A DNA stretch of 42,920 nucleotides from a virus (lineage: Duplodnaviria > Heunggongvirae > Uroviricota > Caudoviricetes). The DNA lies in the IMG/VR virus record IMGVR_UViG_2541047955_000001, positions 1 to 42,920 of that record; one strand, 5' to 3'. The notes under the pieces were generated by a model. The model made no database searches, was not told the DNA's origin, and saw nothing but the letters and a program-made list of their open reading frames with translations. The position numbers and the translations under genes were made by a program. The first letter of the stretch is position 1. Every line of letters starts with the position of its first letter. Shown here in pieces: positions 2,620 through 41,088 of this stretch.

Positions 2620-2843
2620 GCTTTAACCTCCTGCACATCAACCGCATTCACCGCGCTATTGTGTCTCACAGACTTAAGCGCCGCAATGCAGTCTGACTTG
2701 CAAATGCGATATGGGCTTTTAGGTTTATCTGGATTTATCTTTGCGGCCTGAAGTCGTCCACTTCGTATCCACTGCGTGATAGTTCCTTTGTCTACCTTCA
2801 GATACGACGCTGCCTCTTCACGAGTGAAGATTTCTTCTTCCAC
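2496..2843 (-). CDS. xis: excisionase
   Basis: 115 aa, immediately upstream of and overlapping int; HTH-like N-terminus; size matches P22 Xis. Confidence 0.7.
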   Translation of the reverse strand: MEEEIFTREEAASYLKVDKGTITQWIRSGRLQAAKINPDKPKSPYRICKSDCIAALKSVRHNSAVNAVDVQEVKACQSNYAVARGTAISSRQMDQELDALLKHRTKGKRKNFTIV

Positions 2844-2932
2844 CTGGAGTCTCCATTTATTGAGTTGGTATTATTGCGGTAGGTCTGGATATCTTGAGAA
2901 ATGAACAGTCCTCATCGAGTGTGAGACTGTGG

Positions 2933-3277
2933 TTAGTCCTTGCGTAGTTCGCTAATTCTTCTGTAAGTCTCTGGTGCTTTGTTTCCGTGTATCTTCATTT
3001 CAGACTTCAACAGAGCAACAAGGGAATTCCATTCGTTGAGGATTCCTTTGAATGCCGGAACGCGCTTTGCAACCTTGTCGAATGAATCTCTGATTTCTGG
3101 AATCTGCTCAACAAGTGCAACGCATCGTCGGAAATCGGCTGCGTCATGTGGAGCGCCGAAGTGATGACCATAGATATTCTTTTTCAGTCCACATGCGATT
3201 GAGGCAAGAGTTGCGCTACTGATGCCGACATCGCCAGTCGATTGCCATTTCAAAACCTTCATAGCCAAATCTGACAT
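2933..3277 (-). CDS. hypothetical early-left protein
   Basis: 114-aa ORF in the leftward operon; no recognised motif. Confidence 0.5.
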   Translation of the reverse strand: MSDLAMKVLKWQSTGDVGISSATLASIACGLKKNIYGHHFGAPHDAADFRRCVALVEQIPEIRDSFDKVAKRVPAFKGILNEWNSLVALLKSEMKIHGNKAPETYRRISELRKD

Positions 3278-3289
3278 TTCTTGTCTCCA

Positions 3290-3316
3290 ATAAAAAAACC
3301 GCCATCAGGCGGCTTG
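3290..3316 (-). terminator. intrinsic terminator (minus strand)
   Basis: Minus-strand hairpin GCCGCC-TGAT-GGCGG followed by T6. Confidence 0.6.
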
Positions 3317-3472
3317 GTGTTCTTTCAGTTCTTCAATTCGAATATTGGTTACGTCTGCATGTGCTATCTGCGCCCATATCATCCAGTGGTCATAGCAGTC
3401 GTTGATGTTCTCTGCTTCGATAACTCTGTTAAATGGCTCTCCATTCCATTCACCTGTGACTCGGAAGTGCAT
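3305..3472 (-). CDS. small hypothetical protein (55 aa)
   Basis: Not in ORF track (<60 aa); MHFRVTGEWNGEPF...; GGAGA-type RBS 5 nt upstream; flanked by terminators. Confidence 0.4.
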   Translation of the reverse strand: MHFRVTGEWNGEPFNRVIEAENINDCYDHWMIWAQIAHADVTNIRIEELKEHQAA

Positions 3473-3489
3473 TTATCATCTCCATAAAA

Positions 3490-3545
3490 CAAAACTCGCC
3501 GTAGCGAGTTCAGATAAAAGAAAACCCGCACTCGGCGGGTTCGCA
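3490..3545 (-). terminator. two tandem intrinsic terminators (minus strand)
   Basis: Minus-strand hairpins CCCGC-CGAGT-GCGGG+TTTTCTTTT and CTCGC-TAC-GGCGAG+TTTTGTTTT. Confidence 0.55.
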
Positions 3546-3820
3546 TTCGTTCAAATTGCGTTTACTTCTTGGCGTTCTGCTCATCCATATCGATATACCA
3601 TGGGTTGCTTCCCTTGGGCATGTTTAACGACTGCTCGCGATAGTATCTGATGCGCTCCATGAAATATTCGCGTGAGTGCTCAGGTTGCTATCATGATACC
3701 TGCTCAGTGATAACAGGTATGTTAAGGCGCTCTCTGTACTCCATGCCTGATGCTGCAAGGTCAACGTTTACCTTGTTCTGTTTTTCTTTCGATTTCTCGG
3801 CGATGTTATGCCTGACATTG

Positions 3821-4063
3821 TCAACCCGCCTCCTTCTGAACATAACGGTTATAAATCAGTCCCTGAGGGCCATAAGGAAGCGGGATGTGCAACTCCTCTG
3901 GTTCAGAAACTATCCATTCCCCGGCCATCTCGGCTGGAGAGGTAATGATAAGTTGTTTGCTAATAAAAGGACCACTCCTCTCAACAACAAGCTTACCATC
4001 TTCATTAATAAAAGCTTGGATGTCAGGTGTGCTTCCACACTTGGTGATGCAGCGTTTGAACAT
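3821..4063 (-). CDS. hypothetical protein
   Basis: Track ORF 3821-4105; start placed at internal Met with GGGGGA-type RBS; the overlapping plus-strand ORF looks antisense-like. Confidence 0.4.
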   Translation of the reverse strand: MFKRCITKCGSTPDIQAFINEDGKLVVERSGPFISKQLIITSPAEMAGEWIVSEPEELHIPLPYGPQGLIYNRYVQKEAG

Positions 4064-4189
4064 TTTGTGTCCCCCCATTTTATGTACGGGGTAATTATAA
4101 CACATTGAAATATAGTAATATTTGACGTAGATTTCTTTTGATCTATAAGCGATTTTTTAATGCTTTTAAGTTATAAATACTTGTTTTCA

Positions 4190-4951
4190 TCACCCATCTT
4201 GCTGCGGTGCTACTATTGAAAAGTACTCACACCCTTTAGCCCAAATAGTTTTGATAGTTGTCCAACTGACTGGAACCTTGATTTCGATTCTCCCGCTGCC
4301 GTCACAAGTTTCGCAATCATCATCACCAAAGCATTCCGGGCAGCTTATAAACGTAGTTTCTGAAAATTCACCGGATAGCACACCCTTAGCGCCGTTCTCA
4401 GCGGTTAGTTTCTTCGGCACTATAACCCAACCATCCGGAGTTACCGGAGAGTTGCCATTTATATCGAAGTTTGGCTCTGCGTCCTGAACCAGGAGGATGT
4501 AACCATTCTTGGCAGTATCAAGTTCTAACGCCTCGGTGACGGTGCCGAAATAGCGATTACCTAAATCAGCATCACAAGTGCTTACATCAATGGAAACTTC
4601 CATGCCTTCGATTAATTCTGCCAAGTTGTAAGCTTGGCTTACAGGTTCGGCTTCCAGTTCTGCTATGCGCTTATTTGCTGCTTCCAGCTCATCCAGCAGC
4701 GCCAAGACGGTAGCAGGATTGGCTGCGGCGATGAATTCAGCATTGGCCTGCTGTTCCATTTGGAAATCTTCATCGAAACCGCTTTCAGGATGCGCTCCTT
4801 CAATTCTGCAAATGGGAATATATCCAACAACGTCACGATGAATTAGCGCATCATCACAATCAGATCGGCTCTCTCCATATTCGAGCGACCACACACCACA
4901 CGTTGCTTTCTCTGCCTTTTCACGCAGTGCCTGATAGTCAATCTTGCTCAC
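4190..4951 (-). CDS. Ead/Ea22-like protein
   Basis: 253 aa; central coiled coil LLDELEAANKRIAELEAE typical of Ea22-like proteins; C-terminal CPECFGDDDCETCDGSG Cys motif. Confidence 0.6.
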   Translation of the reverse strand: MSKIDYQALREKAEKATCGVWSLEYGESRSDCDDALIHRDVVGYIPICRIEGAHPESGFDEDFQMEQQANAEFIAAANPATVLALLDELEAANKRIAELEAEPVSQAYNLAELIEGMEVSIDVSTCDADLGNRYFGTVTEALELDTAKNGYILLVQDAEPNFDINGNSPVTPDGWVIVPKKLTAENGAKGVLSGEFSETTFISCPECFGDDDCETCDGSGRIEIKVPVSWTTIKTIWAKGCEYFSIVAPQQDG

Positions 4952-5192
4952 TGGTTGCCTCCTGCTTTTCTGCCTTCAACACCATGCGAGAACCATCATC
5001 CAGCTCCCACGCGATCTCACCACCTTCAGCCATGACCAGTCGCCACACCAATTGAGCAGCCTCATTGGTAACATCACGACCTGGATCATTGCCAACGCGC
5101 ATACGTCCACCTTCAACATCGCGCATTTTTGCCAGCATGATAGTTTTTGATAGCGGTGAAAAACCAAGCTGTAGTCGTGCTGAATTACTCAC
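4938..5192 (-). CDS. hypothetical protein
   Basis: 84-aa track ORF with GTG start overlapping the upstream stop. Confidence 0.4.
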
Positions 5193-5356
5193 TGGTTGCC
5201 TCCTTTACGCCACATCGCATTCAGATATTTGTTTTGATTCACTGATGGAAAAGAATTTCTCTTAAGCAATTCCTCTCTCGATGGCATTGGCTTTACGCGT
5301 TGGCGAATAATCATTTCTGCCGGAAGAATGCCTGGATTGTATGCAAGTCCTCTCAT
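5189..5356 (-). CDS. small hypothetical protein (55 aa)
   Basis: Not in track; [15 protein letters not shown]...; start overlaps the stop of the upstream gene (ATGA). Confidence 0.4.
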
Positions 5357-5643
5357 GATTTACTCTCCACTAACTGGTCAATAGCCATGCTAAGTGACAT
5401 ACCTAAAGTTTCGATATGCTGCTGAATATCCTGTAGCGTCTGCGCCTGAGATAACAGGATTTCACGGTTGCATAACTCTTTAACCAGATGCTCAAACTTG
5501 CTGTAATAACCGATACGGCTTAGTGTTTCTTTCCCTGCATTCTCGCCTTCTTTGATAATTCCTCTTTCGCTAAGAATCAGATCGTGTTTTGTTCCGGTAA
5601 TAACGTATTTTCCGAGGTCGATGTTTAGCTTCATTGTTTTCAT
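5353..5643 (-). CDS. hypothetical protein
   Basis: Track ORF 5353-5796; start placed at [10 protein letters not shown] with GAGGA RBS. Confidence 0.5.
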
Positions 5644-5653
5644 TGTTAATTCC

Positions 5654-5950
5654 TCAGTCATTACTGATAGCGCCATAGCGTGAGCGGTAATTACGCAGGC
5701 GCGGGTCGATATATTCAGGGAAGTGGGTATATGTGGCTTTGCGGAATGGTCGGATTGATGTCTGGTAAATTCGCTCGCGTTCTTCTTTCTCTGCAAGCCA
5801 TATACAGTGGCGAAATTCCTTTTCCTCTTTCGTTTCCTGCGGTAGAGACATTATCCGGTCGTAGTTTTTTCTGAATTTATCCAGCACCTCCGATACGGAA
5901 TTGCCGGAACATCGGCGTGGGTCATCCTCACCATACAGAGGCGCTGGCAT
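5654..5950 (-). CDS. hypothetical protein
   Basis: 98-aa ORF left of the ssb/erf pair, the position occupied by abc genes in P22. Confidence 0.5.
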   Translation of the reverse strand: MPAPLYGEDDPRRCSGNSVSEVLDKFRKNYDRIMSLPQETKEEKEFRHCIWLAEKEERERIYQTSIRPFRKATYTHFPEYIDPRLRNYRSRYGAISND

Positions 5951-5973
5951 AATGGAATCCTTATTTTTCTATA

Positions 5974-6357
5974 TCAGAATGGGATGGAATCGTCGTATAC
6001 AGGAGTGTTCTGCTGGTTACTACTTTGCTGCTGCGGGCCATTTCCTGAAGCTGTAAATCCAATCTTTGCATTCAGTAATTCAAGAGTAATTGATTGACCA
6101 TTTTGCCCCTGATAAACATCAACCCTGATGTTTTCTCCGGTAATTTCCACAATGCCACCTTCAACAAGAACGCTACGGTGGTAATCCGCTTGCGCTCCTG
6201 GCTTGGCAAATACAACGGCGCTGTAGTTTGTCCATTCTTTCTTTTTTGTCTGGCGATCGTAATACTGAACGCCAGCACGGATGTTGAATCCGATATTTTC
6301 CCCGGCCTGAAACTCTCTTGCGGGCTTGTTTAGTCTTACAGTAATCGAATGTGCCAT
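5974..6357 (-). CDS. phage single-stranded DNA-binding protein-like
   Basis: 127 aa from internal Met; C-terminal acidic tail ...PVYDDSIPF resembles the SSB DDDIPF tail; start overlaps the erf stop (TAATG). Confidence 0.65.
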   Translation of the reverse strand: MAHSITVRLNKPAREFQAGENIGFNIRAGVQYYDRQTKKKEWTNYSAVVFAKPGAQADYHRSVLVEGGIVEITGENIRVDVYQGQNGQSITLELLNAKIGFTASGNGPQQQSSNQQNTPVYDDSIPF

Positions 6358-6962
6358 TAAGCAGCAGCTCCTTCTAATTCGTCTCGTCTGATGTTGTAAA
6401 CGTCCTGCGCTTTGTGCTGCTCCGGTGTGCCTTCGAGCATCTTCCACGCTTTGGCGAACGCCTGTTTAAGCTCTTCCACGGTGTTTTTCTGCAATGCTGC
6501 GTCAGTGAATGCTTTTAGAACCTGTTCAGGTGTAGGTGATAGTTTTGATTGCTTTGCTGCTGCGTTCTGCTGATGTTTATGCTCGTCGGTATCTGCATCT
6601 TTCGCATCATCAATGCCGAACAAACCATTGAGGCAATACTTGCGTGCATAAGAGCTTGTAGCTCCCGTAACTTGTGCAGAATCCATTCCTTTCTTGCTTT
6701 CTTCCTCTCGTGCAAGGGCGGTTGCCGTATGACTGTTTTCGCCATCGGTAATAGTTGCCGTGGCTTTCACGTAATACCGATCACCAATCAACACAACTTC
6801 ATCGCTGATTGATAAAAACAGGCCATTCAGTAACGGCTTAACGCCTTCAAGAATGTCTTCGCAGCTTCTGTATTTATATTTACCGAATGAGTTGTACTGA
6901 TTCTTTGGCGCGTTCAGATTCTCCTGAATAGCTGCCAGTCTTGCGTAAAATTCTTTGCTCAT
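6357..6962 (-). CDS. erf: Erf recombination protein
   Basis: MSKEFYARLAAIQENLNAPKNQYNSFGKYKYRSCEDILEGVKPLL... matches P22 Erf as recalled. Confidence 0.88.
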   Translation of the reverse strand: MSKEFYARLAAIQENLNAPKNQYNSFGKYKYRSCEDILEGVKPLLNGLFLSISDEVVLIGDRYYVKATATITDGENSHTATALAREEESKKGMDSAQVTGATSSYARKYCLNGLFGIDDAKDADTDEHKHQQNAAAKQSKLSPTPEQVLKAFTDAALQKNTVEELKQAFAKAWKMLEGTPEQHKAQDVYNIRRDELEGAAA

Positions 6963-10682: not shown

Positions 10683-11333
10683 TTAAGGAAGGTTTGCTAG
10701 CTTGGCATCAACGACAACGCCAATGATTTTACAGTTCCCATTGATTTCAATCATTGGGTATTGTGGATTGAGTGGTTTCAGGAATTTTCTACCGGCATCA
10801 ATAACTAACTTTTTGAATGTCGCCTCGTTTTCTCCTTCAAGTTTGGCGACTACCAGCTTTCCATTACGTGGTTCGACTTCTGGGTCGACGAGAATAATCA
10901 TCCCCTCAGGAATACTCAGTCCTGCCGGGGCAGTCATTGAATCGCCTTTAACGTCGAGCCAAAAAGAGTCTTCAGAACAATCTACCGTTGTGTCGTACCA
11001 GTTATCTATTGCACGCCTATGATATGGCTCTACAGCTTCCATCCAACATCCTGCGCTTACCCAACTAATTAGAGGATACGAACCTCTTGGATCATGCCTG
11101 CTGTGATAGGCAATGTTTGAAAGACTATCCTCTCCTTTCAACAGGTAATCAGGGGAGCACTGCAAAGCCTTGGCTAAGGCCAATAGGTTTTCGCCATTGG
11201 GCTCAGTTTCAGATCGCTCCCATTGGGAAATAGCAACATTAGACACGCCAACCATCTTGCCAAGGGCAGCCTGCCTAATCTTGAGTTCTTTTCTGCGAGC
11301 GCGAATACGCTCACCCATCAGTTGTGTATTCAT
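10683..11333 (-). CDS. c2: C2 repressor (CI analogue, LexA/S24-like C-terminus)
   Basis: 216 aa, near-identical to P22 C2 as recalled (MNTQLMGERIRARRK...IIGVVVDAKLANLP). Confidence 0.95.
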   Translation of the reverse strand: MNTQLMGERIRARRKELKIRQAALGKMVGVSNVAISQWERSETEPNGENLLALAKALQCSPDYLLKGEDSLSNIAYHSRHDPRGSYPLISWVSAGCWMEAVEPYHRRAIDNWYDTTVDCSEDSFWLDVKGDSMTAPAGLSIPEGMIILVDPEVEPRNGKLVVAKLEGENEATFKKLVIDAGRKFLKPLNPQYPMIEINGNCKIIGVVVDAKLANLP

Positions 11334-32599: not shown

Positions 32600-34437
32600 T
32601 GAAAGTAACTGCAAACGGTAAGACATTTACCTTTCCTGATGGTACGAGCACCGAAGATATTGGCACCGCCATTGATGAGTATTTTGCTGGTCAGGCTGTT
32701 CAGCAACAAACAGTTAATCAGGCCAATAATGCACCAACACGGGAAGAACCATCATTGATGCAACAAGCTGGCGATTGGCTCACTGGTGGTCAAAGTGCAG
32801 GGCAAATTGCAGAACAGGCTGGTCGTGGTCTGGTAAACATACCATTTGACGTATTGCAGGGTGGCGCAAGTCTGATTAATGCAATCAGTCAGGGGCTTGG
32901 TGGGCCAAAAGTTTTGGATGATGTTTATCGTCCAGTAGACAGACCGACAGACCCCTACGCTCAAGCTGGAGAAACAATTGGCGGGTATTTAGTTCCAGGA
33001 ATTGGAACGGCAGGAAGCATGGCTATTGGATCACTGGCAGAGGCCGCAAATCAGAAAGGCGATTTCGCACAAAATGCAGCTAAAAATGCCGGAGTTAACC
33101 TTGCCGCTCAGGGTGTTCTTTCCGCAGCAGCAAAGGGAATAGGGCGTGGAATAACGGCTATAAAAGGTGATATTGCGCCAGAAGTGGCGAAGAAAATTGC
33201 CACTTCAGAATCGATGGGCGTGACACCAATGACATCTGATGTTATCCCGCCGAAAAATGCTTTCACTCGCGGCCTTACTCAGGATGCCGAGGGGGCTTTG
33301 CTCGGGACAGGCTCAAAGCGAGCGGAGCAATATGCAACGCGTAGTAAGCTGGTAAGCAATTATTTTGACCGTTTTGGTGAGTACAACCCTGATGATGTGG
33401 TGAAATCTCTGACCACCACGTTAAGGGGGCGGAAGGATGCTGCTGGCGCTGTTATCAATGACGTCACCAATAAAATGGGTAATGCCGCAGTTGATACCAC
33501 AAATACCATGAATGCTCTGAATACAGCGATCGCAAGACAGGAACGGCTTGGGACTTCAGCCAATCAAAGCCTGCTTACATCCTTGCGTAACCTACGTGAA
33601 GAATTAGCAAACCCTGCAACTGATTTGGATGTTACGTTTGATCTCTTGCGTCAGCACAGAACAGCATTTAGATCTAATGTTCAGGGAGATTCTATGGTCT
33701 TCCCCAACCAGGCAAAAGCAGCTACCAATATGGTAGAGAATGCAATGTCAAAAGACCTTCGTAACGCAGTTGCTAAAAACCTCGGTGCATCAGACGCAGC
33801 AAAATACCTTAAAGCAAATTCAGATTATGCAAACGTTTATAATAAGGTGCTTAATAAAAACATTGCTAACAAGCTCAACAAGGCAAGCAGTGAAGCCAGT
33901 CCTGAACTTATAAATACCGTTGTATTAAGCAGAAAACCATCTGACGTGAAACGAATCTGGAGCGCATTGGATGATAAAGGGAAAGATGCTATGCGTGCAG
34001 CTTACGTCAGCAAAATAGCGGAAAAGGCCGGTGATTCTCCAGCCAAGTTCATCACTGAAGTTAATAAGCTGAAATCTCAGTCAGGTGGTGAAATTTACAA
34101 CACTATTTTTTCTGGAAAGCACATGAAAGAGCTTGATTCTCTTCATGAAGTTCTACAGCAAACAGCAAGGTCAGACACCGCAAATGTAGTAACTCAGACG
34201 GGGCAATCGCAAGCCAACCGGATAAGGACGATTGGCGCAACTGCGACTCTTGGCGTATCAATGGGGCTTGAGGCTGGCTTTGGTGCAATGATGCGTTTGT
34301 ATGAGTCTAAAGCAGCAAGGAATGCTCTCTTACGTTTGGCAAACACCAAAGCAGGAACACCAGCCTATGAAAGAGCGCTGAATAACGCCGCAAATGCCAT
34401 CAGACCAATACTTGCCAATGATGCAACTGATCGCTAA
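32596..34437 (+). CDS. ejection protein gp16
   Basis: 613 aa; N-terminus [22 protein letters not shown]; size and synteny match P22 gp16. Confidence 0.75.
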
Positions 34438-34458
34438 GGGTTGATGTCATGGATGTTG

Positions 34459-35097
34459 TTAATTGCGAATGGAATCGCGGAACTCTTTGCTTGATAGAAA
34501 AGGATCTGTTCTCCTTAACTCATCATAGTTTTTATTAAACTTTCTTGCTTCACCCGGGTATCTGTTGAACAAAACATTGCAGAAAAAAGAGAGCAATAAC
34601 TCACATATGAATGCTAATACCCTGAAAAATAAAGGTATAAAAAGAAGGGAAGGTTCATTGAAGTCTCTATTCCAAACAAAATAGACAATCATCCCGACAT
34701 ACCAAATTGATATCCCTATACTGATGATTGTTCCAACAGAGGTAACTACGATCCCGATTAAGTCGGACAGTCTGTTTGCCAGTAACTCATTTGAGTATCT
34801 TGCAATCATATACCGCCAACATTTTGCAATATCATCCTGATCTGTAGAGTCTTCTGGAATAGCTAGGCTTCTACATATTGAAGTAGCTCTTTTTTTCTCA
34901 ACTCTTTTTGAGAGCCATCCATTAAAGAGATACATCAACACCTGCGTTGCTATTCCTGCACCAAGTGATATCAAAGACATCCCCAAAAATCGCCATCCTG
35001 GAGATAGTGACTGGTACTGCCAAACAAAAAAAATTAAAAAACCCAATGAGCCTATGACATAGGCTGATGTATCGCTATATATATCTATTTTTTTCAT
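34459..35097 (-). CDS. integral membrane protein, possible SieA-like superinfection exclusion factor
   Basis: Track ORF 34459-35130 (GTG); start at ATG with AAGGAG RBS; ~4 hydrophobic helices; AT-rich; occupies the P22 sieA position. Confidence 0.55.
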   Translation of the reverse strand: MKKIDIYSDTSAYVIGSLGFLIFFVWQYQSLSPGWRFLGMSLISLGAGIATQVLMYLFNGWLSKRVEKKRATSICRSLAIPEDSTDQDDIAKCWRYMIARYSNELLANRLSDLIGIVVTSVGTIISIGISIWYVGMIVYFVWNRDFNEPSLLFIPLFFRVLAFICELLLSFFCNVLFNRYPGEARKFNKNYDELRRTDPFLSSKEFRDSIRN

Positions 35098-35147
35098 TGA
35101 GTAGCCACTCCTTAGTTTTGAGCAGAACACCGGATGATAATGTTTTG

Positions 35148-35399
35148 TTATGTGTCTTTTGGGATTCTATCCAGTAACTCGTTGGAAATTTTATCAAGTA
35201 AAGATTTTATTTGTTTAAGATCTAATGATTTGTCTACTGATGAGACGTCAGATGATAACGCATCCTCAAGAATTTGAACTATCTCTGAGTTCATAGATCG
35301 ACCGTTTCGTTTAGCCCTTTCCGCAATAGCACTACGCATGCCGTCAGGCATTCTAACCGTAAATCTTTCTATGAAATTTGATTCGTCTTTTTCTGACAT
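35148..35399 (-). CDS. ribbon-helix-helix regulator (Arc/Mnt superfamily)
   Basis: 83 aa from internal Met; FTVRMPDGMRSAIAERAKRNGRSMNSEIVQILEDAL is a typical RHH core. Confidence 0.6.
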   Translation of the reverse strand: MSEKDESNFIERFTVRMPDGMRSAIAERAKRNGRSMNSEIVQILEDALSSDVSSVDKSLDLKQIKSLLDKISNELLDRIPKDT

Positions 35400-35439
35400 T
35401 TTCTTATTCGCAAGGCATATGAGCAATAAAAAACACAGT

Positions 35440-35505
35440 AGCATCATATTGACATTATGAGCAATGGCATCATAATGGTGTCATGACATCATGGTGATGT
35501 CATTA
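35440..35505. promoter_or_regulatory. divergent promoter/operator of immI-like region
   Basis: TTGACA-17 nt-ATAATG overlapping the near-palindrome ATGGTGTCATGACATCAT (GTCATGAC core). Confidence 0.4.
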
Positions 35506-35519
35506 TGACGGAGATATTG

Positions 35520-35696
35520 ATGATGAGCGATGTTCTTTACAGTGGTCGTAAAAGTCAGAGTTTCCAGCTTCGTTTGCCAGCGCGAATGAAGGAGGAGATC
35601 AGACGCGTAGCTGAAATGGATGGAATTTCTATCAACTCTGCGATTGTGCAGCGACTGGCTAAAAGCCTGAGAGAGGAAAGAGCTAATGCCCAGTAA
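35520..35696 (+). CDS. Arc-like ribbon-helix-helix repressor
   Basis: Track ORF 35505-35696; start at ATGATG after GGAGA; FQLRLPARMKEEIRRVAEMDGISINSAIVQRL RHH core. Confidence 0.6.
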   Translation: MMSDVLYSGRKSQSFQLRLPARMKEEIRRVAEMDGISINSAIVQRLAKSLREERANAQ

Positions 35697-35769
35697 AAAT
35701 AGTGAAGCCCGGAAGTGCGCGAACACAAACCGGGCCTCTATGTCAGTAACCGTACTCAAGGAAACTAAC

Positions 35770-36408
35770 ATGAATATTGTAGCAAAATCAGATTATAACT
35801 TCCAAGGATTCACTTTTAACCCTGTAACAGAGGGCGGGTCTATCTGGTTTACCTCCACCGAACTAGCTAAGGCTCTCGGCTATAAAAAAACTGATGCCAT
35901 CAGCCAAATTTATGCCCGTAATGCTGACGAATTTTCCGACTCAATGTCATTGACCCTCAATATGAAGGTCAACGGAATAAACAATAGCTTACGTAACAAA
36001 TCGGTCAGAGTTTACTCACTCCGAGGCGCTCACTTGGTGGCGATGTTTGCTTCTACGCCCAAGGCCAAAGAGTTCCGCCGCTGGGTGCTGGATATTTTGG
36101 ATCGGCAGGCAGAATGCTCACCGATTGCAAAACAGTTTACTGACGAAGAACTGGTTAATCTCTGCTACTTACAATTGTGGATGGAGAAGAGTCAACAAAT
36201 GTGCAAACACATCTACCCTGGAATGAAGCAAATTGGTTCTGAGCTTTCAGGAAAGATTTACGATATTGCATATGAGACTCGCTACATGTCAGAAGAAACC
36301 AAGAAATCGCTTCTTCGTGAAATGAAGAATCTTGATCCCAACAATTTTGTCGTAAAGAACGCTCAGCCAATGCTGGCAAAACTTCGCGGCGAGGAATGGA
36401 TTCATTGA
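35770..36408 (+). CDS. Bro-N domain antirepressor-like protein
   Basis: Track ORF 35686-36408; start at MNIVAKS with AAGGA RBS; Bro-N signature FNPVTEGGSIWFTSTELAKALGY...RVYSLRGAHLVAMFASTPKAKEFRRWVLD. Confidence 0.7.
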   Translation: MNIVAKSDYNFQGFTFNPVTEGGSIWFTSTELAKALGYKKTDAISQIYARNADEFSDSMSLTLNMKVNGINNSLRNKSVRVYSLRGAHLVAMFASTPKAKEFRRWVLDILDRQAECSPIAKQFTDEELVNLCYLQLWMEKSQQMCKHIYPGMKQIGSELSGKIYDIAYETRYMSEETKKSLLREMKNLDPNNFVVKNAQPMLAKLRGEEWIH

Positions 36409-36495
36409 TTGGTGCACAGGACGGCGCAAAAGAAAACCGCCAGTGTGCTGCTGGCGGCCTATGTCACACCCTTACTACCACATAAGGAATGCCTA

Positions 36496-37224
36496 ATGAC
36501 TTTTAAGAATGTAGCAAACATCGGATCCGTTGTCACGGATAAAACCATTGATAGCCAGTACCTGTTAGAGATGGTCAATCATGCTCGTAGACAGTGCGGG
36601 GAAAAAGAAGTTCGCAATAACGACTTTATTGCACGCATTAAGGATGAACTTGAAGGTGAGCACTACGAAATTTTCGTAGTTCAAAAATCAAACAAGACAA
36701 CTTCTGAAAAAGTTGTTATGTCAATTAAGCAAGCCCTTCGAGTGGCTGCTCGTGAATCTAAAGCTGTTCGCCGCTCACTTGTAGACCAACTTGAAAGTAT
36801 GCAAGAAGCGCACATTAAAAGCGGTAAATCGTCGAGTGGACTTGTTGAGTATCGCCAGGCGCGAACACTGAAAATGACGGTTGAAGCTGTTACCAATCTG
36901 TTCGATCTGATGCCAAATCTTGCGCCTGAGGCAAAGCAGACAGCGGCAGCAAGTATAATCAACCCGCTCGTTGGTTTTAATGCAATACCTCTTCCGGCAA
37001 TAGAAGAGCATTACTACTCAGCAGGGGAGGTTGCAGAGCAGCTTGGAGTAACGGCCAACAAGATTGGTCGCATTGCTAACGCAAACAACCTCAAAACTGA
37101 GCAGTACGGGAAGTTCTTCCTGGATAAATCTGCGCATTCCAGCAAACAGGTGGAAGCATTCCGCTACAATGCGGAAGGTGTTAAAGCACTACAACACCTG
37201 ATTCATGGGAGTAATGTTGCATAA
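36496..37224 (+). CDS. antirepressor-like protein with KilAC-type C-terminal region
   Basis: Track ORF 36409-37224; start at MTFKNV with AAGGA RBS; C-terminal YSAGEVAEQLGVTANKIGRIANANNLKTEQYGKFF. Confidence 0.5.
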   Translation: MTFKNVANIGSVVTDKTIDSQYLLEMVNHARRQCGEKEVRNNDFIARIKDELEGEHYEIFVVQKSNKTTSEKVVMSIKQALRVAARESKAVRRSLVDQLESMQEAHIKSGKSSSGLVEYRQARTLKMTVEAVTNLFDLMPNLAPEAKQTAAASIINPLVGFNAIPLPAIEEHYYSAGEVAEQLGVTANKIGRIANANNLKTEQYGKFFLDKSAHSSKQVEAFRYNAEGVKALQHLIHGSNVA

Positions 37225-37445
37225 TGGCAAAGAAAAAATATGGCATTATGCCTCCAAGAATCAAAGGAAGAGCCAGGGTAAAAGGCGATGCTGGAAGGTA
37301 TCACATTCTTGGAGTTCTGTGGCATGAGAGAGCTTTAATTTTAAGTAGACCTCATGGGTACATTGAAAAGGTATCTATAGATAGAGTAGAGATTCTTCCC
37401 CTTACACCTGAAGAAGAAGAAACGTACGGACTTTTTGATAACTAA
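37224..37445 (+). CDS. hypothetical protein
   Basis: 73-aa ORF, translationally coupled to the upstream gene (TAATG), followed by a terminator. Confidence 0.45.
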   Translation: MAKKKYGIMPPRIKGRARVKGDAGRYHILGVLWHERALILSRPHGYIEKVSIDRVEILPLTPEEEETYGLFDN

Positions 37446-37452
37446 CCAACTA

Positions 37453-37480
37453 AACCCGCTTAATCGCGGGTTTTTTCTTT
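37453..37480 (+). terminator. intrinsic terminator ending the arc–ant-like operon
   Basis: Hairpin CCCGC-ttaatc-GCGGG followed by TTTTTTCTTTT. Confidence 0.5.
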
Positions 37481-37717
37481 TCTAAGGATATCAGCCGCAA
37501 CTTCTTTTACTCGTTCCGAGATTAATGAGGCCAGCCTCTCTTCTTCATCACGATACCCGCTTACAGGTGATGGTTTGGAGAGTGATTCTTCCATCGTAGC
37601 CACAATTTCGGAATTGATAGACCTGTTATTCATTTTTGCACGCTGTTTAATCTTGGCGTGCAACTCGTGCGTAAGCCTCAAGTGGAACTGCGCCTCATCG
37701 TATTTGCTGTACATCAT
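37460..37717 (-). CDS. Mnt-like ribbon-helix-helix repressor
   Basis: Track ORF 37460-37798; start at ATGATG after GGTGAGG; NRSINSEIVATMEESLSKPSPVSGYRDEEERLA resembles P22 Mnt as recalled. Confidence 0.65.
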   Translation of the reverse strand: MMYSKYDEAQFHLRLTHELHAKIKQRAKMNNRSINSEIVATMEESLSKPSPVSGYRDEEERLASLISERVKEVAADILRKEKTRD

Positions 37718-37859
37718 CAATGCCTCACCAAATGGGTGGAATGGCATCGTAAAACCTACTGTACAAATCAACAATCGTACCATTTCGGTATGTAACAAAT
37801 ACCAACCGTAGCCATGCTGCGGCGATTCCTTGTATCTGGAGCAAATTAAATGACAGACA

Positions 37860-38360
37860 TTACCTACTCAACAGATGGTCAGCAACCATGTTTGCTGCCT
37901 TATAAGCTATAGCCGCTTCATCAATGGTGTTGAATCTCCCAAGGGTTATGTTTTTACCTGAGACATTTATCTGAGCTTGCCATTGATTTCTGGCTTGACA
38001 GAAAGTTACCCCCTTGATTCCAGCATTGCTATTTCGAGGTCCGACATTTAATGCATTTACGACTCTGCTGACATCCCTAAGGTTTGAGATTGCGTTATTT
38101 CTTCTGTTTCTATCAATGTGGTCAATCTCTTGTTTGGGCCATTCGCCATATACATACAGCCAGGCAAGTCTATGTGCAAAATATCTTACGCCATCAATAT
38201 TAATTGCGTTATATCCATAAGAAATTGTGCCAGCAACTTTCCCAACAGCACCTCTGGCGCTTAATTTCTTTTTCCAAGTGAAAATTCCTGTTTCTTTATT
38301 GTAATCGAGAACCTCCATAAGGCGCTCCCGAGTTACTACCTCGTGACGTCTCTTACTCAT
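37860..38360 (-). CDS. HNH endonuclease with AP2-type DNA-binding domain
   Basis: Track ORF 37860-38402; start at MSKRRH after GGAGA; HNH motif [27 protein letters not shown]; C-terminal AP2-like [27 protein letters not shown]. Confidence 0.75.
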
Positions 38361-38373
38361 TATTTTCTCCGGA

Positions 38374-41088
38374 ATGTTTATTATGCCAGAACAATTATAC
38401 AACGTTGTTGTTTCACAACCAAGTCAGTTATTTACTTTAGCTCGCTCGTTTAAAGCAAATGCCAATGGCAAAATTTATATCGGTAAAATTGACACTGACC
38501 CTGTAAATCCTGAAAACCAGATTCAGGTTTATGTGGAGAACGAAGACGGTTCTCACGTTCCTGTTTCGCAACCAATAATCATTAACGCTGCCGGATATCC
38601 GGTATATAACGGACAGATTGCCAAATTCGTAACCGTGCAAGGCCATTCTATGGCTGTTTACGATGCTTATGGCACTCAGCAGTTTTATTTTCCAAATGTA
38701 TTAAAATACGATCCAGATCAGTTTGGCCCAGACTTCAAAGAGCAGTTATCTCAATCAGGAGCATACATTAATGATGATTCAAAAGGTGATGCATTAATTG
38801 GGGTAAGGCAGCCATTTACCGGGGCTGCAACTATAACTCAGCATGAAAACAATGCTCTTTTCTTAAATGTAAAACAATTTGGAGCAATTGGGGATGGGAA
38901 ATATCATCCATTATCTGAGTGGTTTTCTTCAATTTCTGAAGCAAAATCCTTATATCCTTTTGTTGACTCATTATCTCAGTCAATAGACTGGGCCGCGTGG
39001 CAAGCTGCCCTTAACACAGGAAAGGTTATTTATGGTACTGATAATGCGTATGTAATAACGGATACGTTAACACCTGTTTCTGGTGGTGGGATAATTTGTC
39101 TTGGTGTGGGCAAATGGGTCTCAGGATATACTGCAACATTTGCTCCTGATATTACCACAGGGACCACATTCCTGATGTACGGGGTAGGAAATAAAAAATA
39201 TACTGTAGATTGTGTTTCTAATATGGATGTTAGTGGTGGTGTGGTTTCTAACCCATCTTCCGAAGACCCGTATACAACAACGGCACCTGCGTCATCATAT
39301 GATTTATTGGATTTTACTAACGGTGATGCTAATGGGACTACAAGAGCCACGCTTAAACCATTCTCTGCCGCAATATTGATGCCTGAGACAGGATGTGTTC
39401 GCCTTGAGAACTTTCGTGTTGTTCCATATTTCAATGGGCTGGATGGTTATAAAGACATTGCAAATACCGGTCTTGGCGATGAGTGGGATGTAGGTATTTG
39501 GTCACGTGCGTCTTTTGGCAATGAATACCGCAATTTGCAGGTGGTTGGATACTGGCGCAAGACGGCACTTTTAAAAACGAACATTCCTGTATCTGGCACG
39601 CTGGCCGCTCAGGGCGAGGATGAAAACTATTATCACTGTAGATTCCAAGGATTCAAGGGTATTTCGATCCGCGCCCATGATGTATTCCGAATTACAGCGG
39701 TAACGTCCAGCACTATCGAAATACCATGGTCAGCAAGCCACACCTTCGAAACGTCCGGGGTTTTAAGATCTGGAGGCAGGAATTTCACTTATTCAGGATT
39801 ATCCGTATCCGGTGATAAGTTAGTATTTACTGGAGTGTCTAACGCTTCTGAGGCAACAGTAGGTTCTACTATACGGCGAAATGACATAGATAACTTTGGT
39901 ATGGCGGGAACGCAATTTTTCGATTGCTACATTACCAGCCTGTATCACCACACACATCTGCTTGCCACATCGCAATACCTGTCTCAACCATTCAGCCGAC
40001 CATCAGAGTGTATGGAGGTTTCAGGGGAACCAGTTCGCGGTGTACAGGTACATGCAGGAACCATTCAGGGATGGGATGATGTTCTTATTCATCTACATGA
40101 CTGTGGAAATATGAACTTTTACAGTACATATTTCGAAAGCCAGCAAGCATATGTAACTATAAATGGTGGTAATGCTATTGGTTATGGAGCACGTATGATA
40201 GCTTCCCGGCAATCAACAAGCTCATTACCATATGCAGCAGGGAATACTCGAGTGCTTAGAATGGTCGGGTGCTCTGAAGGCAATGGCGTTGACTGGGGTC
40301 CTGTATTTAACAACTATACAGGAGGAAGATATAATTCCGGAGACGGTGTATTTAACCCCCGCGATGCATTTATAGACCATAAATCTCTTCCTGAGCAGTC
40401 AGGAGGTGAGTCAAGACTCGTATCACAAAAAGGAAATGCCAGAGTAGTATGTGGTGTTGGTAAAACTGTACTGCTTGGACCAACGTCAGGAGATTGTAAT
40501 TTACAGAGTAATACTGGAAGTTTAAATATTAGAAGTGGGATAAGAGTAAGAATCGGTCACGCTGATGGAACAGACTGGTGGTTGGCAGATGCTAATAAAA
40601 TAGCTCCTGTTGATGATAATGTTAAAGCCATTGGACAGCCATCAAACAGATGCTCTGTTATTTATGCAGGAACCGGGTCAATCAATACATCAGATGAAAC
40701 TCTTAAAACAAGATATGATATTCTTAATGCAGAGCGTGATGCCGCTATTGAAATAAAGTCAGTCATCTATAAATTTAAATTTAATGACTCAATTAATAAC
40801 AAAGGAATTGAGTCGTCCAGGTATCATTTTGGCGTTGGCGCTCAAACCGTAGGGGATATTCTTAGAAAGCATGGTTTAAACCCTGAGCAATATGCTTTTT
40901 GGTGTTACGATGAATGGCCTGACGTATGGGATGAAGAGGTGATAACTGAAGAGAGCACAGATCCTGATACAGGTGAGAAAATTTATTCTCAATATAAAAC
41001 AGGAGATATGATTCTTGTAAAAAAAGCAGGAGGACGCTACGGAATTCGTTATGACGAATTGGCTATGTTTATATTAATGGCAATGTAG
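38374..41088 (+). CDS. tailspike: P22/Sf6-type head-binding domain, beta-helix depolymerase, C-terminal S74 chaperone domain
   Basis: 904 aa; conserved N-terminal head-binding region; FGAIGDGK beta-helix start motif; C-terminal SDETLK...[10 protein letters not shown]74 signature; true start may be ATG at 38383. Confidence 0.9.

Follow-up and report, generated by a model that had tools for sequence, protein, structure and literature searches.

The immI region of phage P22 is a textbook case of layered control, in which two ribbon-helix-helix (RHH) repressors and an antisense RNA act on an antirepressor. How this circuit is organised when the corresponding interval holds three RHH genes is the question raised by IMG/VR record IMGVR_UViG_2541047955_000001, whose 42,920 nucleotides (the window) are a P22-like (Lederbergvirus-type) prophage of Escherichia coli. 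The region lies between the homologue of gene 16 (ejection protein) and the tailspike gene, inside the late operon and with the gene order of P22; the P22 annotation places sieA, mnt, arc, sar and ant in the same interval. It contains a leftward Mnt-type gene (RHH1), a rightward operon, arc-ant1-ant2-orf73, under a Pant-like promoter, and a second Mnt-like gene that converges on the operon (Table 1). An earlier note made from the sequence had described an expanded immI-like region with three RHH repressors, and had called it atypical for the split of antirepressor function over two open reading frames (ORFs) and for the extra convergent repressor. The gene content of that description was confirmed: the three RHH genes lie at the coordinates it gave and match Pfam Arc (PF03869; E 1.4e-17, 1.1e-11 and 4e-15), and so does the order of an Arc-type gene, a Bro-N protein, a protein of 242 amino acids (aa) and a 73-aa ORF. 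The term immI-like also stands as regards the position of the region, the leftward Mnt-type repressor with its C-terminal helix, the small Arc-type first gene and the antirepressor-type gene that follows. The atypical arrangement, the split and the extra repressor are not supported, for the reasons given below.

The best overall explanation is that two immI-type modules lie side by side, module 1 (35148-37473) complete and module 2 (37460 to about 37850) vestigial, a reading to which we give a probability of about 0.65. The region is read, with the same confidence, as a common mosaic form of the second immunity region, in which a full repressor/antirepressor cassette stands beside a leftover repressor gene; an unusual three-repressor circuit is not the favoured reading.

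Table 1. Position, strand and basis of the features discussed in the text (coordinates of the window)
Feature	Position	Strand	Basis and remarks
RHH1, Mnt-type RHH protein, 83 aa	35148-35399	-	Pfam Arc, E 1.4e-17; DNA-reading strand RFTVRMP
Candidate leftward promoter for RHH1	35443-35470	-	ATGCCA-16-TATGAT; consensus scan, 9/12; predicted
Pant-like promoter	35449-35476	+	TTGACA (35449-35454)-16-CATAAT (35471-35476); 11/12, best promoter-like site in a 4.3-kb scan
Two tandem 21-bp dyads, candidate operators	35464-35503	.	35483-35503 perfect; 35464-35484 with 2 mismatches
Arc-type small RHH protein, 57 aa	35523-35696	+	First gene of the rightward operon; Pfam Arc, E 1.1e-11
sar1, predicted antisense RNA, ~74 nt	35696-35769	-	Terminator hairpin 35704-35738, T-run 35695-35699
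ant1, antirepressor-type, 212 aa	35770-36408	+	Bro-N at N-terminus, P22_AR_C (P22 Ant C-terminal domain) at C-terminus
Psar1, predicted	35776-35805	-	TTGGAA-18-TG-TACAAT, −10 hexamer 35776-35781; consensus scan; within ant1 codons 3-12
sar2, predicted antisense RNA, ~72 nt	36430-36501	-	Terminator 36434-36460, T-run 36428-36436, tail TTTTCTTTT
ant2, intact ORF, 242 aa	36496-37224	+	phrog_1726 'anti-repressor' end to end, E 1.4e-100
Psar2, predicted	36508-36536	-	GTGACA-17-TG-TACATT, −10 hexamer 36508-36513; promoter scan; within ant2 codons 5-14
orf73, 73 aa	37224-37445	+	phrog_4977 (function unknown), E 5.5e-54; start overlaps ant2 stop codon
Hairpin and T-run at operon end	37452-37473	.	Terminator scan; shared with the convergent mnt-like gene; module boundary
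Mnt-like repressor, 85 aa	37460-37717	-	Pfam Arc, E 4e-15; DNA-reading strand QFHLRLT
Operator-like imperfect dyad	37776-37792	.	CGTACCATTTCGGTATG; at P22 Mnt operator position; candidate site
Conserved boundary sequence	37805-37863	+	Holds original tailspike start codon (37850); 94.9% identical to P22 16159-16217
sieA-like superinfection-exclusion gene	34459-35097	-	phrog_7745 'superinfection exclusion SieA-like', E 1.6e-20; same position as P22 sieA
Gene 16-type ORF, 613 aa	32596-34437		Matches annotated DNA transfer protein genes in related genomes
Prophage repressor, CI/C2-type	10683-11333		Helix-turn-helix (HTH) and S24 domains; domain search

Two probable modules in tandem

For the convergent gene, the preferable reading is that of a leftover from a second immI module of P22 type, because it has an operator-like site of its own beside the tailspike gene and is absent from other carriers of the cassette. 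Its product belongs by sequence to the Mnt family, with an RHH domain and a C-terminal helix, and is, as had been proposed, the more Mnt-like of the two leftward repressors (43% full-length identity to P22 Mnt, the C-terminal helix included, vs 33% for RHH1). At the position of the P22 Mnt operator lies a dyad whose sequence changes with the DNA-reading strand of the Mnt protein. HFNFRMP is found with AGGTCCACGGTGGACCT in P22, QFKLRLP with TGAACCACGGTGGTTCA in the related locus L020, QFNLRLP with AAGACCACCGTGGTCTT in SE1, and QFHLRL(T/P) with (C/A)GTACCATTTCGGTATG in this window and in Sf101. Among about 40 variants of the type found here, the half-site GTACC is invariant and GGTAT is altered in a single sequence, whose right half has decayed. 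Across the window the pattern GTACC-N5-GGTAT is matched exactly at this site only; a search for the motif near Pant or ant2 found no copy, and the other near-match (37347-37361, one mismatch) is at chance level.

The surroundings of the gene point in the same direction. In SE1 and Sf101 the gene immediately before the tailspike gene is a lone mnt, and phages ST64T, ST104 and L have mnt without arc or ant (PMC2629481, PMC8022706). Loci L010 and L011 carry the cassette without the convergent gene, and in L020 and L023 (IMG/VR, ~2786-6900) its place after orf73 is taken by a different mnt (43-53% identical) together with arc, a Pant-like promoter and a Mnt operator, followed by the tailspike gene. 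In L020 the cassette is closed by the same operon-end hairpin, after which different DNA begins. If a P22-type ant follows arc in L020 and L023, that moron would hold three antirepressor-type genes. In the window, the boundary sequence to the right of the dyad, annotated bsq1 in CUS-3, retains the old tailspike start, which now encodes MTDIT, 15 unrelated codons and a stop. The simplest reading of the sequence is thus that of two modules in tandem, the right-hand one probably reduced to mnt, its operator-like site and a decayed promoter region that abuts the old tailspike start. The apparent third repressor, which the earlier note had assigned to the same circuit, would then be the stump of the second module.

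A natural chimera was also found, P0135, which joins the N-terminus and reading strand of the Mnt-like protein (MMYSKYDEAQFHLRLP...) to the C-terminal half of RHH1 (...SSDVSSVDKSLDLKQIKSLLDKISNELLDRIPKDT); recombination evidently occurs between the two Mnt-type genes.

Repressor, promoter and candidate operators of module 1

RHH1 is 33% identical to P22 Mnt (33-35% across comparisons) and aligns with it over its full length, including the C-terminal helix. Its family, of 81-83 aa, occurs in Salmonella, Citrobacter, Hafnia, Obesumbacterium and Cronobacter and aligns end to end, again with the C-terminal helix. In E. coli UTAK-1, PGAP marks the gene as a pseudogene 'missing C-terminus' (L004 2348-2500, equivalent to window 35247-35399); this call is probably an annotation artefact, because the 83-aa ORF is intact and matches the conserved family over its whole length. 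RHH1 is likely to be the analogue of Mnt and is proposed as the maintenance repressor of the ant operon. The candidate promoter of RHH1 overlaps Pant back to back, with the geometry of Pmnt and Pant in the P22 annotation, and related loci have homologous TTGACAT promoters at the same place as Pant. A search for a LexA box at Pant found none, and matches in the whole window are at chance (12 vs 14.9 expected).

A promoter overlapping a near-palindrome had been noticed in this divergent intergenic region. Both are present, the palindrome quoted (ATGGTGTCATGACATCAT, 35475-35492) being symmetric at 16 of 18 positions. The site is better described by two tandem 21-bp dyads of the pattern ATGRCAYCA-N3-TGRTGYCAT (ATGACATCA-N3-TGATGTCAT), which has these two matches only in the whole window (0.02 expected by chance). 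The dyads cover the −10 hexamer of Pant and positions +1 to +20, and a weaker third copy is seen by eye near the −35 hexamer (~35438-35458). Significance is confined to the full dyad; the short half-site CATCAT alone is not enriched.

A tblastn-based scan for divergent RHH pairs in related loci showed which protein the operators follow. The operator types track the reading strand of the leftward RHH protein and not that of Arc: RFTVRMP occurs with the dyad of the window, RFN[IV]RLP with TTGGTTCTAGAACCAA and KFM[LV]R[FL]P with ATCATGTCACGGTGACATGAT, and each of the three can be accompanied by one and the same Arc strand, SFQLRLP. Joints left by recombination fall within the N-terminal part of RHH1 and at the start of arc. 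The tandem dyads are assigned to RHH1 because the operator type follows the RHH1-type reading strand while the same Arc meets three types, and this covariation suggests that RHH1 binds them. The Arc-type protein is 25% identical to P22 Arc. An alternative start at 35505 would extend it to 63 aa; PGAP and the homologues use the 57-aa start.

The antirepressor-type genes

The product of ant1 matches Bro-N (PF02498; 42.2 bits vs a cut-off of 25.6, E 1.3e-10) and, in its C-terminal part, P22_AR_C (PF10548; 52.5 bits vs 22.4, E 5.4e-14), a domain that the earlier note had missed; the whole protein matches phrog_245 'anti-repressor Ant' (E 6.3e-50). The C-terminal domain alone is shared with P22 Ant, with 30% identity over 69 aa by BLASTP (Ant residues 206-274). 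By its domains, ant1 is likely to be an antirepressor of a CI/C2-type repressor, for example the HTH and S24 protein of this prophage.

The second gene, ant2, belongs to a separate full-length family. It has 2097 relatives at E ≤ 0.001 across Enterobacterales, the best 120 of which are 220-255 aa long and without a Pfam domain. Sequence searches of ant2 against Pfam at E ≤ 10 (including KilAC/ANT, PF03374), NCBIfam and PDB sequences gave nothing usable, its alignment was unrelated to P22 Rha and to ant1 by hhalign (probability ≤1 on a scale of 0-100), and it has no similarity to P22 Ant. Structural comparison was more informative: in Foldseek the model gave matches over its full extent to viral proteins that bear the names antirepressor, KilAC or KilA (E 1e-9 to 5e-8, with low TM-scores), including BFVD proteins named 'Antirepressor protein KilAC domain' (E 2e-8, again with low TM-scores), and the model suggests a MerR-like winged helix at the C-terminus. 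The KilAC-type C-terminus attributed to this protein, then counted as 243 aa, is thus upheld as a likeness of fold and fails as a match to PF03374 at E ≤ 10.

The antirepressor function is not divided between the two genes, as had been supposed. Both the N- and the C-terminal domain are found in ant1, and in phage SPN3UB ant1 is present and not followed by ant2. That ant2 is a frameshifted continuation of ant1 was considered and ruled out by the 87-bp spacer with its own ribosome-binding site (RBS), by the end-to-end PHROG match and by the occurrence of each gene alone.

As to its role, ant2 may act as a second antirepressor, aimed at a different target, or it may be a regulator that binds DNA. 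The second option, a protein that activates or represses phage or host genes and is merely co-expressed with ant1, is a serious minority possibility, and a winged helix of the kind predicted would be in keeping with DNA binding. Set against it are the full-length Foldseek matches named antirepressor or KilAC, the PHROG label 'anti-repressor' and the nearly constant place of ant2 behind an antirepressor-type gene that the same repressors control, all of which are names and not tests.

The alignment of ant2 retrieved 73 full-length IMG/VR loci, and the last gene of the operon, orf73, is an optional member of the cassette, because it is present in 34 of them and absent from L010, L011 and phage phiKp_30. 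No significant match to PADLOC defence models was obtained for ant1, ant2, orf73 or the sieA-like gene. P22 itself holds an 80-nt relic similar to ant2 (P22 16069-16148, L002, aligned with window 36644-36723; 77.5% identity, E 1.6e-11). Two copies of the boundary sequence 'caccgtagcca(c/t)gct' enclose this relic, which is found in the stretch from the ant terminator to gene 9; the P22 lineage therefore once had a gene of the ant2 type.

Predicted cis-antisense elements

Each of the two large genes of the operon is faced by the layout of a sar-like cis-antisense RNA: a promoter on the minus strand near the start of the target's coding sequence, a terminator in the spacer before it and a stretch complementary to the RBS. 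The first element, sar1, sits exactly where the earlier note had advised looking for a sar-like RNA, between arc and the Bro-N gene. It is complementary to the arc-ant1 spacer and the ant1 RBS, with its 3′ end over the arc stop codon exactly as in P22 sar, and its folding z-score is −4.3. Alignment of 17 sequences, P22 among them, shows the outer stem preserved; one position holds either A-U or G.U, a swap that keeps the pairing on the minus strand alone, and the inner pairs show compensatory changes on both sides. In P22 and every related locus the −10 hexamer (TACAAT, TACACT or TATACT) occupies ATG+6 to +11. A scan of 34300-38600 against Rfam at E ≤ 1 gave no match, and only a narrow re-scan brought out a weak match of 35701-35769 (minus strand) to sar (RF00262; 18.1 bits, E 0.21, with all 68 model positions colinear); P22 sar itself scores 97.8 bits. 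On these sequence grounds sar1 is called a diverged positional homologue of P22 sar, and not a member of the Rfam family.

The second element, sar2, is complementary to the Shine-Dalgarno sequence of ant2 (AAGGAA, 36484-36489) and to its start codon (36496), and matches no Rfam family, RF00262 included. Its stems differ by lineage yet still pair: CCGCCAG/CTGGCGG, GCCAACAG/CTGTTGGC, GCCGACAG/CTGCCGGC and GCCAGTGG/CCACTGGC. In 18 distinct sequences, 100% of the cells of the eight-pair stem are paired and four of the eight pairs have changed on both sides, values reached by none of 500 shuffles; RNAalifold recovers the same helix. One pair of the Klebsiella form is a G.U on the minus strand only. 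The promoter appears frozen: across 38 distinct sequences of four lineages there is no change in GTGACA, in TGnTAnAnT or in the 17-nt spacing. This is reflected in ant2, where the third positions of codons 5-7, 12 and 13, under the hexamers, have zero entropy while the amino acids at codons 5-7 vary; most third positions of codons 17-45 have 0.5-1.9 bits. Similarity between loci stops immediately past the T-run of sar2.

The element also occurs in front of another gene. In SPN3UB (L006 3669-3776), a sar2-like terminator, the RBS, roughly the first dozen and a half codons and a promoter TCGACA-17-TG-TACATT stand ahead of gp22, a 262-aa 'transcriptional regulator' that is otherwise unrelated to ant2. 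SPN3UB gp22 and gp23 were rejected as homologues of ant2 and orf73, the similarity being confined to the first codons. Taken together, the covariation of the stem, the frozen promoter, the wobble constraint, the sharp boundary and the reuse of the element favour sar2 being a functional minus-strand transcription unit, as predicted from the sequence.

An alternative is that the spacer hairpins are sense-strand elements (attenuators, RNase sites or mRNA stabilisers) or recombination boundaries, and that the hexamers are incidental. Mosaic joints do adjoin the hairpins, sar1 is below the Rfam threshold and sar2 has no family, and promoter-like sites in the 4.3-kb scan are as many as in shuffled sequence (9 vs 9.0). 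This alternative is nevertheless unlikely. The T-run is found on the minus strand only in every lineage, several G.U pairs of the minus strand would be A.C mismatches on the plus strand, the hexamers, the 17-nt spacing and the TG are fixed at zero wobble entropy under a varying amino-acid sequence, and sar1 is colinear with the sar of P22, which was defined by experiment. A more general proposal, for and against which we see even odds, is that each large gene of the operon has its own cis-antisense RNA and that sar2 is an undescribed portable cassette of ~110 bp, running from terminator to promoter, that is spread across Enterobacterales prophages and can be fused to unrelated genes. If so, P22 sar would be an instance of a reusable translational lock on individual genes, and not a single feature of P22.

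Proposed regulation and alternative readings

The arrangement suggests the following scheme. In the lysogen, RHH1 bound to the tandem dyads over the −10 and start of Pant would silence arc-ant1-ant2-orf73. In a new infection the cell would contain no RHH1, so that Pant would fire, and the Arc-type product would then lower transcription again, by analogy with P22. Both antisense RNAs would start just inside their gene, run back over its RBS and end in the preceding spacer, each restraining the translation of its own gene. The product of ant1, and perhaps that of ant2, would inactivate CI/C2-type repressors. The Mnt-like protein probably regulates only itself or a matching incoming phage, and probably does not act on module 1.

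Several points weigh against this reading of the region. The operator of the Arc-type protein was not found, the blocks shared by loci with the same Arc (TTGACAT, AATGGTGT and TCATTRTG) being too short to judge, and since one Arc occurs with three operator regions, one of these sets could be mismatched. The antirepressor role of ant1 is drawn from domain homology, and that of ant2 from database names and a model with a predicted local distance difference test score (pLDDT) of 70 and low TM-scores. As to the antisense elements, sar1 scores below the Rfam gathering threshold (18.1 vs 43 bits), and most sar2 stems are identical in sequence, so that the covariation comes from three or four lineages. 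The dyad of the Mnt-like gene is imperfect (5 of 8 symmetric pairs), and the 4.3-kb scan found no good promoter for this gene. An orphan mnt in related E. coli prophages is strongly induced in macrophages, its deletion leaving host survival unchanged (Gally, PMC9928086), and the mnt of Kapi1 is not expressed in lysogens (PMC12922286).

It could also be argued that the region is one integrated, expanded immI, with three RHH proteins on the same divergent promoter and the Mnt-like protein as a third layer of control. The three genes do lie within 2.6 kb, the Mnt-like gene is found together with ant2, whether orf73 is present or not, in JEP4, in phiKp_30 and in 38 of the 73 IMG/VR loci, and chimera P0135 implies that the Mnt-like protein and RHH1 share an oligomerisation module. 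However, the operator motif has no copy near Pant, JEP4 pairs the same Mnt-like gene with an unrelated Pant region, the cassette dispenses with the gene in L010 and L011, and the gene keeps the position that it has in mnt-only phages, with its operator-like site where P22 has the operator. An integrated circuit is thus quite improbable, and two modules in tandem remain the preferred reading. That the whole region is a decaying, non-functional moron whose genes are relics is very improbable: the PGAP call on RHH1 in one genome, the loss of arc and ant from the right-hand module, the insertion sequence (IS) elements that interrupt the region in some genomes and the HNH gene inserted alongside would fit decay, but all six ORFs are intact, RHH1 matches its 81-83-aa family over its full length, the regulatory region is kept in 24 complete E. 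coli genomes and the constraint on hairpins and promoter hexamers argues for ongoing selection.

Distribution and mosaicism

The gene 16-tailspike interval of P22-like phages is a hypervariable 'ant moron', of which ten types were described in sixteen genomes (Villafane et al. 2008, PMC2629481), so unusual gene content is expected here. This speaks against calling the arrangement atypical, and a leftward repressor, Arc, a Bro-N gene and ant2 recur in this order in prophages of E. coli, Morganella, Klebsiella and Serratia. Of the 73 IMG/VR loci, 67 have an ant1-like gene immediately before ant2, 38 have the same mnt-like gene (at least 90% identical) converging from downstream, and 45 have a tailspike gene downstream. 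Three P22-like prophages of E. coli (L009-L011) combine a leftward RHH protein of 106-127 aa with the same 57-aa Arc, ant1 and ant2. In siphovirus prophages of Morganella, Klebsiella and Serratia the same order lies between the DUF6246 and tape-measure genes, so that the cassette is found in prophages with short and with long tails. Some siphovirus prophages, as well as JEP4 and E. coli HS, have an HTH and S24 repressor in place of the leftward RHH protein. Among 5426 complete E. coli genomes, 24 have a match to 80% or more of the regulatory region (35380-35780), and identity in the 14 matches listed is 98.8-100%. Strains with exactly this region include E. coli O111:H- 110512, UTAK-1 and AR_0058.

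Klebsiella phage phiKp_30 (L005 3953-5108) carries ant2 and a truncated mnt-like gene as an insert between direct repeats of ~45 bp (agcaagatacgccgtaaaccctcgcccgacagggcggggagcagtcac), which looks like a recent illegitimate or repeat-mediated acquisition.

Comparison with known systems

Compared with P22 immI, the window has the same gene 16-gene 9 position, a leftward Mnt-type RHH gene with the C-terminal helix, a rightward Arc-type first gene, overlapping divergent promoters with dyads, an antisense element opposite the arc-ant spacer and the C-terminal domain of Ant. It differs in that Bro-N stands in place of Ant's N-terminal domain, in the presence of ant2 with a predicted antisense cassette and of the 73-aa gene, in operators unrelated in sequence, in an RHH1 at 33-35% identity to Mnt and in a second mnt-type gene, with an operator-like site of its own, at the right end. 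Of the mnt-only morons, those of SE1 and Sf101 have in common with the window a leftward mnt just before the tailspike gene, the boundary sequence and a dyad where P22 has its operator; unlike the mnt-only morons (L, ST64T, ST104, SE1, Sf101), the window has a complete cassette to the left of mnt and an HNH insert before the tailspike coding sequence. The siphovirus Arc/Ant morons of SPN3UB and of Klebsiella, Serratia and Morganella prophages resemble module 1 in the leftward RHH gene, Arc, a sar1-like hairpin, a Bro-N antirepressor, a sar2-like cassette and a second gene, and the ant1 of SPN3UB has 95% DNA identity. They differ in their place between DUF6246 and tape-measure genes, in their operator specificities, in the HTH and S24 repressor of some of them and, in SPN3UB, in the unrelated gene that replaces ant2.

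The HS-1 type, among the ant morons drawn by Villafane et al. (2008; PMC2629481), matches the window at 93% over 61% of a 4-kb query. Its member JEP4 carries the same block of ant1, ant2, orf73 and the mnt-like gene, with 94.5% DNA identity over 35690 to 37862. In contrast to the window, the leftward repressor of JEP4 (L001, JEP4 3093-4007) and E. coli HS is C2/LexA-like, and JEP4 has also another small RHH gene. The apparent lack of arc in HS-1 was noted before, and a different control was proposed (PMC2629481). If the C2/LexA-like repressor is autocleavable, the ant1-ant2 operon would be coupled to the SOS response there, unlike in the window. In other systems, too, small phage RNAs gate the translation of antirepressor-type genes, as in c4-icd-ant of P1 and P7. 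IsrK-orf45-anrP of Gifsy-1 is a further example (PMC4825925). The RNAs of P1/P7 and Gifsy-1 are processed from, or act in trans on, a transcript of the same strand, whereas those predicted in the window are cis-antisense like sar.

Earlier work had already described this type of region and how much it varies, as well as the mnt-only stump and the control of ant by antisense RNA. In a literature search that covered older P22 work thinly, the conserved pairing of ant1 with ant2, the assignment of operators by covariation and a second sar-type cassette were not found described. No general principle is changed by these results; what they suggest is that the usual form of immI in E. coli and relatives is a two-effector cassette, larger than the textbook form, and the coordinates of the second sar-type RNA and the repressor-operator assignments are testable predictions. 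As cited in PMC12922286, Lemire et al. (2011) reported that antirepressors can induce other prophages in the same cell, so the targets of ant1 and ant2 would be relevant to induction wherever an E. coli strain carries several prophages.

Neighbouring genes

The sieA-like gene is the left neighbour of the circuit, within the moron and outside the regulatory circuit. On the right, an insert of 537 bp just after codon 5 of the original tailspike gene (window 37850-38402) carries a gene for an HNH homing endonuclease (37860-38360, minus strand), with matches to HNH_3 (2.1e-16) and to PADLOC HEase (2.2e-07). The ATG at 37850 now opens a dead-end ORF of 20 codons, the new tailspike start is at 38374, and MFIMPEQLY replaces MTDITA. 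The same insert is present in Kapi1 (99.8% identity) and in 3 of the 73 IMG/VR loci. The tailspike (38374-41088, 904 aa) has a P22-type head-binding domain (3.7e-64). Its C-terminal part gives two weak matches, one to an endosialidase catalytic domain (slightly under the Pfam cut-off) and one to Peptidase_S74, an intramolecular chaperone domain (slightly over it), which suggest that the receptor-binding part is specific for a capsule or polysaccharide.

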